Below, piece by piece: positions 28,345 through 54,712 of a DNA stretch of 64,000 nt. The stretch is taken from NCBI GenBank assembly GCA_025336685.1, contig GCA_025336685.1_4717.1, one strand, 5' to 3'. The stretch's first letter is position 1; the number at the start of each line of letters is the position of its first letter. The translations under genes were made by a program, and so were the position numbers. This stretch comes from Escherichia coli. Its GTDB lineage: Bacteria > Pseudomonadota > Gammaproteobacteria > Enterobacterales > Enterobacteriaceae. The notes beneath the pieces were generated by a model that ran no database searches, was not told the DNA's origin, and was given only the letters and a program-made list of their open reading frames with translations.

Positions 28345-28395
28345 CGCAGATTCCTGTTTGAAAGATAAGATATCACATGATGGTCGACAGCATAA

Positions 28396-48171: not shown

Positions 48172-50967
48172 TTAAGCTAATTTACCGAAACCGGCTTTCT
48201 GCAGTTTCTCGTTGATGATTTTCGCTTCAGCGAAGACGTAATCACGATACGCAGTGACTAACCCATCCACCCGTGAACGCAAGGCTTCTTCGAAGCTATA
48301 CCACGCAGCGATTTCACGAATCTGTGCGTTGATATAATCAACGGTTGAGCGAAGCTCGGTTGCATTTTCTTGCGGAATGGCTTTCACCTGGCGAGCAACG
48401 TCATTTAAACGACGGAACTGTGTTTCGATTTCTTTAAACTTACTGTCGGCAAGTTTGCTGAATTCGTCACCGGAACGGGTGAATAACAGATAGCTGTTGC
48501 CGTCAAGCGCTGTCGCTAACTGCTGAAGAACGTTGGTATCCGGATACACAGGAGTACCGCTTTGCAGTACTTTCTCACCGAATTCCGCGAAGTCCTTCGG
48601 CGGTAAGTGCGCAGACGTTGTTAACTCGTTGAAACGGAAAGTCAGCGAATTATCATACAGCATCCGGTACGCTTCCATACCCTGTTGCATGGTACCGGCC
48701 AGGTTAGCCAGACGCGGAGCAATCTCACCCTCTTTAGCGCGTTTCTGGTCTTCTAACGCCCCTTCGAGTTCTTTACACTGGTCGTTCAGATACACGATAC
48801 GATCGGGACGCAGACGACGCATCTCACGAAGAATAGTATCCAGCTTACCTTCCTGGAAATAACCCAACGTTAAAGACGTACACGCTTGCTGAAGACGATC
48901 GAACACCGGCAAGGTCACCATCTCTTTACGGATACCATCAACAATCGCAGAAACAGCCGAAAGTTTCTGTTCGGTGGTTAATGGGGCGTCAGAGACCGAC
49001 TTGCTGGGCGCGCCAACAACGTTACGCATTGCGTCGGTATCCTCGGTTTTATCAACCTCTTTACGAACATTCTCATCAGGAACATAAACGTTCGCGTTAC
49101 GTTTCGCCTGCTTGATGGCGTCGTTGGCTGCTTTTTCGGTGGCCGCTACGCTATCGGCACGTTTCTTCAAGAGTTCGATAATCCAGAGCAACAGACGACG
49201 AATCGCGGTATAGGCCGTCGTGATGATGACACCGATAACAGCCATCTTCATGATACCGAACGATTCCATGGTCGGCTCTAACGCCTGGTCTGGCATATAC
49301 CGTTCACGCAGTTCCAGATAGATCTGCTCATCTGGTTTGCTGATCTCACCACGATGCGAAGTCCGATAGATGGCTTCGTCAATCTCAACAAGATCTTTGC
49401 GTGCCTGACGGTCTGTTTCGGTCAGATAAGCGCAGCCGGATACATCGTCTTCAAAACTTTCGAACTTGAAAAAGTCATTGACATCGATCTTGATCTTCTT
49501 CGCTTCATTATCGACATCAATAAAATCTTTTTTCTGTGCTTGATATTCCGCTTTGATGTCGTTCACCGGCTTCAACGCACGTTCTTTTAATGCCTGTACG
49601 ATCTGTTTCCAGTCAGCGTCGCGCTCAAGAACAAGGAAGTAATTCTTGAGTTCAAAAGCACGGTAACGCGCAACGAGTTGTTCTACCTGAACATGAGCGA
49701 GTTGCACGTCCATCAGCCAACGCGACATTGCCGAGATCAAACGACTATAAGCAAGTAATGTTTGATACGTCAGCTTCATGTGCTTTTCGTACAGCTCAAT
49801 ATCGCCGTCTTGAATATCAGCCGTCGGGTTCATTTCCTTCGTTGCTTTGAAGATTTGTTCGGCTTCATTTAAAGTCTGTTCGAATTTGACTTCATTAAAC
49901 GCGTCGAACGGCTCAGCCAACACCGCCATTCGATCGCGAAGTTCACGAACCCAGGCGTCTTTATTGTTGCGAATAGCTGCGTCATCGTGAAGTTCGGTTT
50001 GATGTTTCTGTACCCATTCTTCGACGATATCAGCGGCGGCAACAATTCCGGTACCATCGGAAACTAACGGAACAACTCCAGCAAGTACGCCTACACATGC
50101 CGGAGTTTTCCAGTAATCGTTCAAAGCGTTTCTGAATTCAACGATGGATTGTACGTTTGGTACCATATCCAAAAACGTACTGCCGTTACGGCTCATTGTC
50201 GTTACGATATCAGCGAATTCCTTCTGCTTGGCGGTAACAAAAGGAACCAGGACCATAAGCCATTCAGCAACCGATTTCGCTTTTTCTTTCAGGTTCTTGT
50301 CTGCGATTTCTTTAAGACTAATCGCACCACCATAACCTGCAAGCTCTTTATATACGTCGCTAAGTGTCATCTGTTTATCCAACATTTCTTTGAAACGTGG
50401 ATAATCAGCACCTAACGCATCGATAATATCGTTGATTACGTCGTCGGTTGTCGCGATAAACTTCTTCGTATCGACGTTTGAATATTTCCAGACGTACCGT
50501 ACGGCTTTCTTGATTCCTGCAAAGATAAACGCCCAAATACGCTTGATGAGTTCCCAGACTTTCTTCGCGCCATCGACAAACAGTTTAGAGACCTTGGCAA
50601 CGAATCCTTCCTGTACCAACTCAACGCCGTTACGTGATGGGATTTCGGTGAAGAAAGCATCCGGTAGTTGTTTCGGGAACGCGTCGCCAAGACGCATACG
50701 CAGTTCGGGTACATCAGCACGAGAAATACCCCGTGTTACTAACTGTTCGTGAAGACGAACGTTTTCTTCGCCAGAGGTCACGAATTGGTTAACATCGAAG
50801 GAAACCATCGCTTCCTGATCTTCGGTGGTGACGACGCTTGAACCATCGCTGGTTTGGATGTCTTCGTCAGGGAACGCCATGAGCATACCGTGACGCATTT
50901 CAACCACTCCGTAATCGGTTGCTAAACCGAATTCGTTGTGGTCAGGGGTAATAACTGGGATACTCAT
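48172..50967 (-). CDS. large hypothetical virion-associated protein (931 aa)
   Basis: ATG at 50967 in ATGA overlap; N-terminal VELVQEGFVAK...KKVWELIKRIW segment resembles the head-internal paralog motif. Confidence 0.9.
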   Translation of the reverse strand: MSIPVITPDHNEFGLATDYGVVEMRHGMLMAFPDEDIQTSDGSSVVTTEDQEAMVSFDVNQFVTSGEENVRLHEQLVTRGISRADVPELRMRLGDAFPKQLPDAFFTEIPSRNGVELVQEGFVAKVSKLFVDGAKKVWELIKRIWAFIFAGIKKAVRYVWKYSNVDTKKFIATTDDVINDIIDALGADYPRFKEMLDKQMTLSDVYKELAGYGGAISLKEIADKNLKEKAKSVAEWLMVLVPFVTAKQKEFADIVTTMSRNGSTFLDMVPNVQSIVEFRNALNDYWKTPACVGVLAGVVPLVSDGTGIVAAADIVEEWVQKHQTELHDDAAIRNNKDAWVRELRDRMAVLAEPFDAFNEVKFEQTLNEAEQIFKATKEMNPTADIQDGDIELYEKHMKLTYQTLLAYSRLISAMSRWLMDVQLAHVQVEQLVARYRAFELKNYFLVLERDADWKQIVQALKERALKPVNDIKAEYQAQKKDFIDVDNEAKKIKIDVNDFFKFESFEDDVSGCAYLTETDRQARKDLVEIDEAIYRTSHRGEISKPDEQIYLELRERYMPDQALEPTMESFGIMKMAVIGVIITTAYTAIRRLLLWIIELLKKRADSVAATEKAANDAIKQAKRNANVYVPDENVRKEVDKTEDTDAMRNVVGAPSKSVSDAPLTTEQKLSAVSAIVDGIRKEMVTLPVFDRLQQACTSLTLGYFQEGKLDTILREMRRLRPDRIVYLNDQCKELEGALEDQKRAKEGEIAPRLANLAGTMQQGMEAYRMLYDNSLTFRFNELTTSAHLPPKDFAEFGEKVLQSGTPVYPDTNVLQQLATALDGNSYLLFTRSGDEFSKLADSKFKEIETQFRRLNDVARQVKAIPQENATELRSTVDYINAQIREIAAWYSFEEALRSRVDGLVTAYRDYVFAEAKIINEKLQKAGFGKLA

Positions 50968-51404
50968 GCATTCTCTCCTTGCAGTGCGTTAGCGAAAGCT
51001 GTTGCAAGTTGCGCAACCAGTTTCGGATCAACGCCTTCGATAACGTCAGGAAGCCCTGCGGTTTCTTGGTCACGAACAGCGGAGGCTAATAACAACATAG
51101 TTTCGGGTGCGGTCGGCTCATGTACCATGCGGTAACGCAGACACCAGAAGTAGCGAGCAACGTCTAACGCATCAGCCAGCCCAATAACCAGTACCTTGTT
51201 CAGCTTATCCAACCCTTCACGGATTTTAGGGAGATGTTCACGAACGAAAATGCTGTCTGCAGTCAGATCTTCTTTTTCAGCGAATACTGGCATGCTGTAA
51301 CCAGCAATGTAACCTGCGGCAATACTTAATGCACGGGTCTGTTGTTCGGCCGGGAAATCACGAACCAGGTCTTTCAGCTGAACGGCGAAATCAGAAATAT
51401 TCAT
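50964..51404 (-). CDS. hypothetical protein (146 aa)
   Basis: ATG with AGGAA SD. Confidence 0.75.
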   Translation of the reverse strand: MNISDFAVQLKDLVRDFPAEQQTRALSIAAGYIAGYSMPVFAEKEDLTADSIFVREHLPKIREGLDKLNKVLVIGLADALDVARYFWCLRYRMVHEPTAPETMLLLASAVRDQETAGLPDVIEGVDPKLVAQLATAFANALQGENA

Positions 51405-51436: not shown

Positions 51437-52747
51437 TTAGGCGATAATGGAATCAAGAGTCGCTGCTGTTTTGAACAGATCGCTGTTCATTGTAGAAGAA
51501 AGGACTTGCTGAATTTCTTCCTGTTTAACTGCTTTACGAACCCCTGGACGAAGGATAAGCGTAACCATCTGTGAAAAGGTACGATTATTGTTCATCACAC
51601 TCAGCGTTTCATCGATTGTTTTGATGGTATCCAACGTCATGGAACGAACATCGCTTGGAACATCACGATCTTTCAGACGTATGATTAAATCTTGTTTGAT
51701 TTTACGGAATCGTTCCATGTCGTTATCGTAAATGCTGTATGTCGGATCCAACCAAACAGAAAGCGCGGTTACAGCGATAACAACCAACACGCCGATAGCA
51801 CCAACAGAAGCTAAACCTAACGCCATCATAGAAGCTATAGTAGCATCCATGATGAAGGAGAGCCAGAACATCGTTTTGGACTTCATGGAATTGGTGCCAT
51901 AAAGCCGATACATTTTAGCAAGCCCGCTAACGAGATACTCCCCACTACCGTGACGCGTAGCGAACTGATCAGCCATGAATTCGGAAGCAACGTCGGTATA
52001 TCGTCCAGCGTTGTTTACATTTCGTAATTGCATCGCTTTGTTAGACACGTAAACCGTGTACCAGACACTACCATCGTCCGAATCGCCGATTTTGTTTACG
52101 TCGACGTTAGTATCCAGCGTTTTGTTTAACGCTTTAGCCAGTTCGATACGTTTTACCTTATCGGTTGTCCCCAACAGTTCGCGCTGCACGGTCATGATTG
52201 AGGCTTCGACACGAACCGTTTCCGACAATGTTTCAAGGAAAGTAAATGCATGACCGATTTCATGCAGCATTATGGCTGCTTTTTCTTCCGGAAGAAAGGG
52301 TTCTGTCGCTGTTAGCAGTTCATACGTGATGGCAGAACGAATCTTCAACTCCTCAAAGATACCGTAAGCGCGACCTTTTTCTAAATCGACGTAACCGACA
52401 GGTGCATCTTTAATCTTCTTAAGAAGTGCGACACCATCGACACCACGCATCCATAACCGATGATAGTCTGCCAGGATCGTGTTGTTTGTCGAAATATCCG
52501 GCGGGTACACGTAGGCATTCATCTGGCCCATTTTCACGTCGACCGAGAATTCGATGTTCAACCCAGTATAGCGTTTAACCATCTCGGTTAAATGACCGTC
52601 CTTGAAAACGTTTAAAACATCTTTTTTATCCAGTCCCTGTTTGCTTCTGAAGAACTCGGTCATTTCCTTGAACAAGGAACCATCCTGAAACTTGATGGCC
52701 TCCATCGTTAATTCGTCATGACCATACACGCGTTGTAGTAATGACAT
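51437..52747 (-). CDS. putative membrane-associated zinc metallopeptidase with HExxH motif (436 aa)
   Basis: AAIMLHEIGHAFTF (HExxH) about aa 160; two hydrophobic helices near aa 290-330; family not assignable by eye. Confidence 0.8.
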   Translation of the reverse strand: MSLLQRVYGHDELTMEAIKFQDGSLFKEMTEFFRSKQGLDKKDVLNVFKDGHLTEMVKRYTGLNIEFSVDVKMGQMNAYVYPPDISTNNTILADYHRLWMRGVDGVALLKKIKDAPVGYVDLEKGRAYGIFEELKIRSAITYELLTATEPFLPEEKAAIMLHEIGHAFTFLETLSETVRVEASIMTVQRELLGTTDKVKRIELAKALNKTLDTNVDVNKIGDSDDGSVWYTVYVSNKAMQLRNVNNAGRYTDVASEFMADQFATRHGSGEYLVSGLAKMYRLYGTNSMKSKTMFWLSFIMDATIASMMALGLASVGAIGVLVVIAVTALSVWLDPTYSIYDNDMERFRKIKQDLIIRLKDRDVPSDVRSMTLDTIKTIDETLSVMNNNRTFSQMVTLILRPGVRKAVKQEEIQQVLSSTMNSDLFKTAATLDSIIA

Positions 52748-52759
52748 TATACACTCTCT

Positions 52760-52775
52760 AAATTTACGTAAATTT
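52760..52775. promoter_or_regulatory. perfect 16-bp palindrome AAATTTACGTAAATTT just upstream of the metallopeptidase RBS
   Basis: Exact palindrome within the 220-nt divergent intergenic region; operator-like. Confidence 0.35.
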
Positions 52776-52968
52776 AAGGGCTAATGGATCGGCTGGCCGC
52801 ACCAATCACAATGTGTTCGTTGCTATGCAACGGCATTCATAGAAATACCTTTTGAGTGTAGCATTACCATTCACACCCCAAGCAATAAGAGCGGTCGGTT
52901 AAAAACAACAGAACGTGAGGATGATATAGAAAATCACCTTTTAACACTTATTACGAGTTTATCAAGCC

Positions 52969-54138
52969 ATGAGCGAACAAGAACGAAAACCTAAGAAGAA
53001 ACTGCTCGGTATTCAATGTCGACACATCAGCTATAACGAAGCGAACGATGGTAGTAAGAACGACCTCATGATCGCAAAAGAGATCATGTTCTTCGATGAT
53101 AATACGCAAGCGACGAACCTTCGCTTCTTTGAGAATTACAAACGTCCGTTTTGGGTGACGGTAGAGAGTAAACGTAAGAACAAATATAAAAAGGAAAGCG
53201 AGAAGCTCTCGCATGTGCGTCGCTACGATGTCCGCCAAAGCGAACTGGTTGAAAAGATCAGCTCGGTACTTTATAAAAGACGTGCTGACGATAACACCCG
53301 TTTACAGCAGCTCGCACGGAGTCCCTACCTCTATGGCACGGACGTTAGCGCCAGCTGTTATTTAAAAACCCAATATAATACAAAATGGCCGGAATACGTC
53401 GATAAATTACCCGCTTCTATCGCCTGTTTCGATATCGAAACCGACGTTGTCCATGGACACGGTAAGATCGTCTGTATGTCTATTACAATGGGATACAATG
53501 CGATACTTTGCTATACCAAGGACTTCGTTGGTCATATTCCGAATGCGATTGAGAAAACCCATGAGAAGATCCGATATTACCTGGCCGAACGTCTGAACAC
53601 CAAAGAAGATCCTCACGCGTTCGAAAAATATCAGTACGATGTTCGAATCGTAGAAAGTCCGGCGCAAGCGGTCATCCAATGCATGCAGAAGGTTCACGAA
53701 TGGCAACCGGATTATCTCCTTGGCTGGAATATCGCGTTCGATATTCCGCGCATGCTCCAGGCACTGAACGAGGAAGGGTATCGTCCCGAGGATGTTTTCT
53801 CCGATCCTCGCGTACCCCCTAAGTATCGTATTGCTCGCTGGGTACCACCGAAAACCGACAAGGTATCTGCTTCGGGTCGTAAAACCAACCTTACCCTCGA
53901 GCAGACCTGGCCGATGTTTTATACGATGGCTACGTATCAGGTTATGGATGCGATGTGTGGTTATAAGTTCGTTCGTTTAGGAAGACCGGATGAGGGACGT
54001 TACTCACTCGATGCGGTATTAGAGCGAAATAAATGCCATACGAAATTAAAAGCAATTCCTGGTACAGAAGGGTTCACAGAGCTCGCCTGGCACGAAAGAG
54101 ATGCAAACGAACCATCAAATCGACTACGGCGTATATAA
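52969..54138 (+). CDS. family-B DNA polymerase fragment: N-terminal 3'-5' exonuclease domain (389 aa)
   Basis: Exo I CFDIETD, Exo II YLLGWNIAFD, Exo III-like YQVMDA; weak SD. Confidence 0.8.
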   Translation: MSEQERKPKKKLLGIQCRHISYNEANDGSKNDLMIAKEIMFFDDNTQATNLRFFENYKRPFWVTVESKRKNKYKKESEKLSHVRRYDVRQSELVEKISSVLYKRRADDNTRLQQLARSPYLYGTDVSASCYLKTQYNTKWPEYVDKLPASIACFDIETDVVHGHGKIVCMSITMGYNAILCYTKDFVGHIPNAIEKTHEKIRYYLAERLNTKEDPHAFEKYQYDVRIVESPAQAVIQCMQKVHEWQPDYLLGWNIAFDIPRMLQALNEEGYRPEDVFSDPRVPPKYRIARWVPPKTDKVSASGRKTNLTLEQTWPMFYTMATYQVMDAMCGYKFVRLGRPDEGRYSLDAVLERNKCHTKLKAIPGTEGFTELAWHERDANEPSNRLRRI

Positions 54139-54292
54139 CCTTTGGGATAACCAGGGTATCGAGGCGTTGGACCAGAAAACGAACTATTCTGACATCCCTA
54201 TTCGTTTGGCGGCGTCAGTTTGAAGATTTCAGTTCTAACCCTAAACGTATCTGCGACAAACTTTCTTCGTTTATCTTAACCGTGGGGAAGTC

Positions 54293-54712
54293 ATGGGATG
54301 CACTGCCGACGACATGACCCAGGAAGAAGATAAGTGGGTTATCTCACGAACCGGACATATCGTCACATTACCGTGCGATCTCATGGCAGACAACGGCATT
54401 CATCTCTTCTGGGATATGCCTAATCTGAGAAGTTATATCCGTCTATTCGTTGCAGACCTCGACATAAGCAGTTCATATCCAAATGGGCAGATCCTGCTCA
54501 ATCTATCCAGAGCCTGTGTTTTCCGTGAGCTATCACGCATTGAGGGCGTCTCTGACTATCAATTCAGGAAGTTAGGTATCAACTTTATTACCGGAGGTAA
54601 AACGAACGCTGTAGACTTCTGTAGAATCGTTTATAAAGCACCATCGATGTTTGAACTCTTAGAGCATTTCGATGCGACGCGTCCGAAAGAGGAAGCGCGG
54701 ACCATCGAATGA
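54293..54712 (+). CDS. family-B DNA polymerase fragment carrying motif A (139 aa), separated from the exonuclease ORF by frame changes
   Basis: VADLDISSSYPNG matches pol B motif A (DxxSLYPS); no motif B or C before the stop at 54712. Confidence 0.55.
   Translation: MGCTADDMTQEEDKWVISRTGHIVTLPCDLMADNGIHLFWDMPNLRSYIRLFVADLDISSSYPNGQILLNLSRACVFRELSRIEGVSDYQFRKLGINFITGGKTNAVDFCRIVYKAPSMFELLEHFDATRPKEEARTIE

Follow-up and report, generated by a model that had tools for sequence, protein, structure and literature searches.

A conserved head protein of phiKZ-like jumbo phages as a predicted, distant M48-type zinc protease with a candidate membrane hairpin

In a 64,000-nt stretch of DNA filed under Escherichia coli (assembly GCA_025336685.1, contig GCA_025336685.1_4717.1; hereafter, the window), a minus-strand open reading frame (ORF), here called gp67, encodes a protein that is, judged by its sequence, a distant M48-type (gluzincin) zinc protease with an intact active site, and that belongs to a conserved head-protein family of the phiKZ-like jumbo phages. 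Between positions 51300 and 53000, the window is 92.6% identical to Escherichia phage vB_EcoM_Goslar, a jumbo phage of 237 kb that forms a nucleus, and the counterpart of the ORF in that phage is gp067 (YP_009820752), annotated as "hypothetical protein" and sharing 92% amino acid identity with it. The role that we favour, with a probability of about 0.4, is that of a protease packaged in the head, ejected with the DNA, and held by a hydrophobic hairpin in the host inner membrane or in the membrane of the early-infection (EPI) vesicle, where it would cleave its targets early.

An earlier note, made from the letters of the window alone, had pointed to an HExxH motif (HEIGH) near residue 160 and had proposed a zinc metallopeptidase. 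The motif was confirmed at residues 162–166. In an alignment of 196 homologues, mostly representatives of clusters formed at 50% identity and sharing roughly 25–30% identity outside the invariant residues, H162, E163, G165, H166, E256, D260, G129, and R346 were 100% invariant, and an alignment of 34 relatives (21–30% identical to the query) contained 12 invariant columns, including H162, E163, G165, H166, E256, and D260. Given its invariance in the 196 homologues, the HExxH is to be read as no chance motif. Residues 256 and 260 belong to an E-x-x-A-D motif, from which M48 peptidases and related gluzincins draw their third zinc ligand.

The assignment to M48 was reached by several routes. The family profile, searched against the PDB, matched human ZMPSTE24 (E = 0.005), with H162 and H166 placed on H335 and H339, and E256 on E415. 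In Pfam, 25 of the 34 family members matched Peptidase_M48 (PF01435) at E <= 1, the best of them at E = 2.5e-5, and hhalign against E. coli HtpX gave a probability of 75% across the region formed by the strand and the HExxH. The fold of the catalytic domain is that of M48. Among the predicted viral structures of BFVD, the same full-length fold was found in phiKZ-like jumbo phages, with TM-scores of up to 0.83, and the more distant matches included two proteins of Bacillus phage AR9 annotated as "Zincin protease" and proteins of uncultured myoviruses annotated as "Peptidase M48 domain-containing protein". The doubt raised together with the metallopeptidase proposal, namely that the HExxH could stand in a non-catalytic context, with no third ligand and no peptidase relative, is answered by E256 in the ExxAD motif and by these M48 matches, M48 being one of the families that had been named as candidates. 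Because the catalytic centre (His162, Glu163, His166, Glu256, Asp260) is intact and absolutely conserved, we infer an active enzyme, as opposed to a relic. When the PDB was searched with the sequence of the single protein, only a photosystem subunit was returned, a match judged to be due to chance, and NCBIfam gave nothing useful.

The gene encodes a conserved head protein, a core virion component of the phiKZ-like jumbo phages; the view that such a metallopeptidase is not a standard head or tail component did not hold, given the large head-protein family, the presence of the Goslar ortholog in purified virions, and the location of the gene in a block of capsid-vertex genes. The window protein matched PHROG 2767, of unknown function, at E = 1.4e-78 over residues 12–432. 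Of the 212 phage records in which tblastn found relatives, 186 reach a coverage of at least 80%. Most of the 212 stem from phiKZ-like jumbo phages that infect Pseudomonas, Erwinia, Salmonella, Serratia, Ralstonia, Klebsiella, Vibrio, or other hosts, and many are labelled "virion structural protein". Named orthologs are phiKZ gp84, PhiPA3 gp086, 201phi2-1 gp145, EL gp052, and SPN3US gp45. A profile search among 1.84 billion representative proteins yielded 3759 clusters (50% identity) at E <= 1e-3, with 1790 at E <= 1e-30, and nearly all of the best 150 matches listed were 410–460 aa long. In GenBank, phiKZ gp84 is noted as "structural head protein", and PhiPA3 gp086 likewise bears a virion/head-protein label. 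That members of the family are virion proteins has long been known (phiKZ gp84, SPN3US gp45), and a few database records already speak of a zincin or an M48 peptidase. Our literature search found no paper discussing the fold, active site, hairpin, or function of the family, no functional work under the names gp84, gp084, or PHIKZ084, and no Goslar gp67 data in the CRISPRi-ART paper. The Avs5 activator JADA was considered as a match for gp67 and rejected as a different, early protein.

In CsCl-purified virions of Goslar, gp067 was detected by 19 peptides that cover 47% of it (Table S4 of bioRxiv 10.64898/2026.04.21.720040, the text of which does not mention it), and the label-free estimate is of about 48 copies per virion, with a range of 32–76; these are values of the 92%-identical Goslar ortholog. 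By the same method, subunits modelled at 55 copies came out at about 76–79, with gp65 at 76 (bioRxiv 10.64898/2026.04.21.720040). The gene order gp67-gp66-gp65 corresponds to phiKZ gp84-85-86 and to SPN3US gp45-46-47, and across the family a DNA polymerase gene lies on one side and gp85/gp86-type genes on the other. In Goslar, gp66 and gp65, the homologues of phiKZ gp85 and gp86, are subunits of the vertex-binding complex (VBC), which is found at the inner face of those capsid vertices that are not the portal vertex, and they are present in 110 and 55 copies per virion, respectively; in the map of this phage, an unassigned density adjoins gp65 (same preprint). The gp067 estimate is compatible with one copy per VBC protomer, a correspondence that is suggestive only.

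The N-terminus carries the mark of a head protein too. For SPN3US gp45, cleavage by the prohead protease gp245 is documented; it has a 20-residue N-terminal propeptide that the authors of that work likened to the capsid-targeting sequences of T4. Its E20 (…AVASE/SIGFQ) shares an alignment column with E16 of the window protein (…LTME/AIKFQ), and a Glu is found in this column also in phiKZ gp84, PhiPA3 gp086, and PCH45. In total, E16 is conserved in 194 of the 196 homologues, with S, A, T, or G two residues earlier (P3) in 186, a context that approximates the A-x-E and S-x-E sites reported for these prohead proteases (e.g., ASE-20, AVE-79, ALE-111, and SQE-122). Among the Goslar virion peptides listed, a semi-tryptic one assigned to gp067, AIKFQDGSLFKEMTEFFR, has Ala17 as its first residue, with Glu rather than Lys or Arg in front of it. 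The unprocessed N-terminus of Goslar gp067 would be marked by the peptide VYGHDELTMEAIK, its processed counterpart beginning with AIKFQ. From residue 1 to at least residue 30, the window protein and Goslar gp067 do not differ, and the AlphaFold2 model has a predicted local distance difference test (pLDDT) score below 50 for residues 1–15. We concluded that the mature protein starts at Ala17 (Ala17–Ala436), after a cut behind E16.

The two hydrophobic helices that the earlier note had seen around residues 290–330 are also there, as helices 291–313 and 317–333 of the AlphaFold2 model, and the Kyte-Doolittle means over 19 residues exceed 1.4 along residues 292–339, with a peak of 2.55 at residues 308–326. 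The hairpin is present as a feature across the family, whereas its sequence is variable, and this variability extends to close relatives. From Goslar gp067, the window protein differs mainly in a patch of 30 residues within the hairpin (residues 301–330; 51758–51847), which holds 21 of the 33 amino acid differences; at the nucleotide level, codons 301–330 show 41 differences, versus 0–19 per 30-codon bin elsewhere. Two further related loci, L007 and L006, were compared with the window at the protein level. In L007, the gp67 ortholog is 47.5% identical, rising to 100% over the N-terminal 30 residues and to 93% over the C-terminal 14, and is flanked by gp66 and DNA polymerase genes at 99% and by gp65 at 91%; in L006, identity is 78% in gp67, 97–99% in gp66 and the polymerase, and 94% in gp65. 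The pattern resembles the outcome of allelic exchange, or of strong diversifying selection, acting on gp67 and above all on the hairpin, with the catalytic residues fixed. A diversity-generating retroelement was considered as the cause of this hypervariability and rejected, no template-like repeat having been found within the window.

Comparison with known systems places the protein as follows. Full-length homology joins it to Goslar gp067 (92%) and to phiKZ gp84, PhiPA3 gp086, 201phi2-1 gp145, and SPN3US gp45 (22–26%). The length of 410–450 aa, the HExxH/ExxAD residues, the E16 site, and the synteny are common to all of them; presence in the virion comes from mass spectrometry for Goslar and SPN3US, and from the GenBank labels for phiKZ gp84 and PhiPA3 gp086. 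With respect to the cellular M48 enzymes (Ste24/ZMPSTE24, HtpX, BepA, LoiP, Oma1), similarity is marginal and, for the window protein, stays below the Pfam threshold. The hairpin of the window protein follows both zinc-ligand motifs, whereas the helices of HtpX flank the domain and Ste24 forms a chamber of seven helices. The membrane topology of HtpX and Ste24 was not found, since residues 291–334 form the only hydrophobic segment, although that topology is not universal in M48, as BepA is soluble. For the C-terminal helical domain of ~100 residues, we could identify no counterpart, and, in contrast to cellular M48 enzymes, the window protein is packaged in the capsid and carries a targeting peptide cleaved by the prohead protease. 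The family is one of M48-type proteases with a distinct architecture and a capsid-internal life, and not a new class.

Two other groups of proteins offer parallels. With the T4 internal proteins IPI, IPII, and IPIII, and with Alt, it shares an N-terminal peptide of 10–20 residues that is cut after a Glu, as well as storage in the DNA-filled head; the T4 proteins are ejected with the DNA, whereas ejection of the window protein is what we propose. There is no sequence relationship between them, and the T4 proteins have neither a metalloprotease domain nor a hydrophobic hairpin. The zincin-like MPTase domains of the polyvalent proteins of phages and plasmids (PF18818) are carried in the particle, delivered with the DNA, and act early in the recipient, a concept shared with the role proposed here; however, a single family member showed a faint match to PF18818 (E = 0.083), and the family, the architecture, and the phage groups differ.

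According to the role that we favour, the gene would be expressed late, probably from a late promoter of the TATG type, and the 16-residue N-terminal targeting peptide would be removed after Glu16 by the phage prohead protease, of the S80 family. The mature protein, Ala17–Ala436, would then be stored in the DNA-filled capsid in roughly 50 copies, a number matching the stoichiometry of the five-fold VBC, whose proteins are the products of the next two genes downstream, and would leave it together with the DNA and other ejection proteins. Once outside, the hydrophobic hairpin could insert into the host inner membrane or into the membrane of the EPI vesicle, and the anchored protease could cleave host or co-injected phage proteins as the infection starts. 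In favour of ejection and membrane insertion is the conservation of the hairpin as a feature in the whole family. The products of neighbouring genes, SPN3US gp47 and phiKZ gp86, were proposed as ejection proteins by their authors, and chimalliviruses inject into a lipid vesicle. Moreover, a hot-spot of divergence at gp67 among genomes otherwise 99% identical is as expected for a host-facing protein.

A number of observations weigh against the M48 assignment or against this role. Taken alone, the window protein reaches 11.4 bits (E = 0.29) with the Pfam M48 family, below the cut-off of 20.3, and a Foldseek search against the PDB returned no significant match. No experiment on any family member shows zinc binding, proteolysis, ejection, or membrane insertion, and the EPI-vesicle preprint that we searched does not name the protein among those that phiKZ injects. 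In some members of the family, charges break the hydrophobic stretch, leaving 11–15 residues as the longest uncharged run, and for this reason the hairpin might be a protein–protein interface instead of a membrane anchor. Finally, the operon partners, like a copy number close to 55, would fit equally well with a protein that stays bound to the capsid vertices.

Nucleus-forming jumbo phages inject a poorly understood set of proteins, and within seconds their DNA is inside a lipid vesicle. A conserved head protein with a complete active site, a membrane-type hairpin, and ~50 copies is a testable candidate for an enzymatic step of early infection or of head maturation. The present analysis assigns to a large family of "hypothetical virion proteins" a fold, an active site, and a maturation site, none of which is discussed in the literature searched. 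In its widest form, which we regard as doubtful, the proposal would hold that the capsid-stored M48 protease of every phiKZ-like jumbo phage is injected and anchored by its hairpin, and that its cleavage is required to build or later to open the EPI vesicle. If so, its targets would be host membrane or defence proteins, or co-injected phage proteins, and the hypervariable hairpin would record an arms race with a host factor.

The strongest competitor, possible although on the unlikely side, is a protease that stays in the capsid as a peripheral, flexible subunit of the VBC, where, while the head matures, it would trim or clear the peptide fragments that the prohead protease releases, or else process proteins of the inner body or ejection proteins, with the hairpin as its interface with gp65 and gp66. 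The shared gene order would fit such a role, as would the VBC membership of gp66 and gp65, the closeness of the gp067 estimate (48) to 55, and the unassigned density beside gp65. In addition, propeptide fragments are fully cleared from the heads of phiKZ and 201phi2-1, which needs either peptidase activity or an exit route, and both unfolded chains and peptides are substrates of M48 enzymes such as Ste24. However, gp67 is not in the modelled VBC of Goslar, nor is gp84 in that of phiKZ, and gp84 goes unmentioned in the phiKZ papers that we found. The processing of head proteins is already known to be carried out by the S80 prohead protease, and the rapid allelic turnover of gp67 next to a gp66 that is 99% identical is hard to square with a tight structural partnership.

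We consider it improbable that the metalloprotease fold was kept mainly for a structural purpose or for that of a non-proteolytic chaperone (cf. BepA), contributing to head stability or to the organisation of the bolus of ejection proteins. Such a role would suit a protein that is a conserved part of the virion and whose long C-terminal helical domain has conserved residues of its own (R346, Y340, K359, Q413), and no proteolytic activity has been reported for any family member. Against it, all the metal-binding and catalytic residues are invariant in the 196 sequences, including the general base E163, which pure structure could dispense with; because of the invariance of E163, a purely structural role is unlikely.

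Least credible, and very improbable, are the alternatives of the earlier note taken jointly, i.e., a lysis enzyme or a cytoplasmic host-targeting effector, switched by a repressor through a palindromic operator over the leader: hydrophobic helices and an HExxH could suit a membrane-acting enzyme, but the protein is packaged in the virion and processed like a head protein, has no signal peptide, and lies in no lysis-cassette context, which leaves the suggestion of a lysis-related enzyme without support, and no cognate DNA-binding protein was identified for the operator.

The palindrome itself is present: the perfect 16-bp sequence AAATTTACGTAAATTT at 52760–52775 is part of a longer one of 18 bp, TAAATTTACGTAAATTTA, and lies directly ahead of the ribosome-binding region, as had been described, with GAGAG (52754–52758) adjoining it. 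At least one perfect 18-bp palindrome appeared in 23.5% of 200 dinucleotide-preserving shuffles of the window. Palindromes of 16 bp number three in the window, two of them inside coding sequence. One of these, TTTCTTCCGGAAGAAA (52282–52297), lies inside the gp67 ORF, and the other, GTTTCGATATCGAAAC (53426–53441), inside the polymerase ORF, over the codons of the FDIETD exonuclease motif, showing that palindromes of this kind also come about within genes here. Even with 2–3 mismatches allowed, TAAATTTACGTAAATTTA occurs once in the window, and the Goslar-like genomes of IMG/VR have one copy each; the half-site TAAATTTAC and the motif ATTTCTATR showed no enrichment in the window, and no palindrome was found upstream of the phiKZ, PhiPA3, SPN3US, and PCH45 orthologs. 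As RNA, the palindrome would form a weak, all-A·U hairpin of -1.8 to -2.9 kcal/mol, and the folding of the leader in its entirety is not superior to that of shuffled sequence (z = -0.2). Being single-copy, at chance level, restricted to one clade, probably transcribed, and weakly folding, the palindrome leaves the suggested operator-type control unsupported. On the other side, the block formed by the palindrome and the Shine-Dalgarno sequence is identical in Goslar, L007, and L006, although the intergenic region of L006, including the adjoining upstream sequence, is otherwise rearranged and diverged; for this reason, some constraint on this 35-nt block is plausible, and the palindrome may conceivably be a clade-specific translational or protein-binding element.

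Its probable location is in the 5' untranslated region, i.e., transcribed, ~60 nt downstream of the best candidate late promoter. A second conserved intergenic block, AAGGTATTTCTATGAATGCC, contains TATG, the core (T-3 A T G+1) of phiKZ-type late promoters (PMC7598289), and CTTTATGA is found upstream of phiKZ gp84 and PhiPA3 gp086. A start at the TATG of 52838–52841 would put the palindrome at about +63 to +80 of a leader of ~91 nt, and thus clear of the promoter. Sequences of the type TTTATG or TTCTATG were seen upstream of several virion genes of the window, often right behind a G+C-rich, terminator-like hairpin; the T of TATG is at 28394, 34309, 37014, 58814, and 52841 (minus strand), and the sites are candidates for late promoters of the phiKZ type that are fused to the terminator before them. 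The small hairpin encoded just past the candidate start (Table 1) is possibly a 5' stabilising stem-loop, and L006 retains the stem at about 2908–2926 with another loop and register, GCCGTTG-CAGCA-CAACGGC.

Table 1. Features of the gp67 locus and its surroundings (positions in the window)
Feature	Position	Strand	Remarks
ORF (gp67)	51437..52747	-	Intact, 436 aa; ortholog of Goslar gp067, phiKZ gp84, PhiPA3 gp086, and SPN3US gp45 (PHROG 2767)
N-terminal propeptide (predicted)	52700..52747	-	Codons 1–16, MSLLQRVYGHDELTME; resembles capsid-targeting sequences; prohead protease cut predicted after E16
HEIGH zinc-binding/catalytic motif	52250..52264	-	H162-E163-I-G-H166, aa 162–166
ExxAD motif	51968..51982	-	E256-F-M-A-D260; third zinc ligand Glu and supporting Asp
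Hydrophobic helical hairpin	51746..51877	-	aa 291–334; candidate membrane anchor; hypervariable among close relatives
C-terminal all-helical domain	51440..51730	-	aa 340–436; R346 invariant; Y340, K359, and Q413 near-invariant
Shine-Dalgarno sequence GAGAG	52754..52758	-	6 nt ahead of the ATG at 52747; kept in Goslar, L006, and L007
Perfect 18-bp palindrome TAAATTTACGTAAATTTA	52759..52776	.	9+9 dyad with no spacer; single copy; Goslar-like phages only
Small hairpin CGTTGC-ATA-GCAACG	52818..52832	-	A few bases past the candidate transcription start
Candidate phiKZ-type late promoter (T-3 A T G+1) ATTTCTATG	52838..52846	-	TATG at 52838–52841; conserved block in the diverged L006 intergenic region
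Downstream gene	50964..51404	-	146 aa; ortholog of Goslar gp66/phiKZ gp85, capsid VBC protein; 99% identical to Goslar gp66
Next gene	48172..50967	-	931 aa; ortholog of Goslar gp65/phiKZ gp86, VBC protein; same position as SPN3US gp47

Among the neighbouring genes, the gp65 ortholog of the window contains a strongly hydrophobic helix (MKMAVIGVIITTAYTAIRRLLLWIIELL) and is merely 86% identical to Goslar gp65. Its positional counterpart in SPN3US, gp47, is an essential protein and a candidate ejection protein, with a predicted transmembrane helix.

On the other side of gp67, the gene for a family B DNA polymerase (52969–54712, plus strand) is uninterrupted at the point where Goslar, L006, and L007 carry an insertion of ~1.8 kb. 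This insertion, which holds an HNH/NUMOD endonuclease gene, lies just before polymerase motif A (DLDISSSYPNGQ), the Goslar locus being L001 9671–13270, and the polymerase of the window looks like an insertion-free (perhaps intron-less) allele. Its reading frame is broken with respect to Goslar by indels of +1, -2, and -1 near 54097, 54217, and 54262, mostly in short homopolymers, and there is an in-frame deletion of 6 nt as well. Each of the fragments still translates to conserved protein, and the frameshifts are probably sequencing or assembly errors rather than the sign of a pseudogene.

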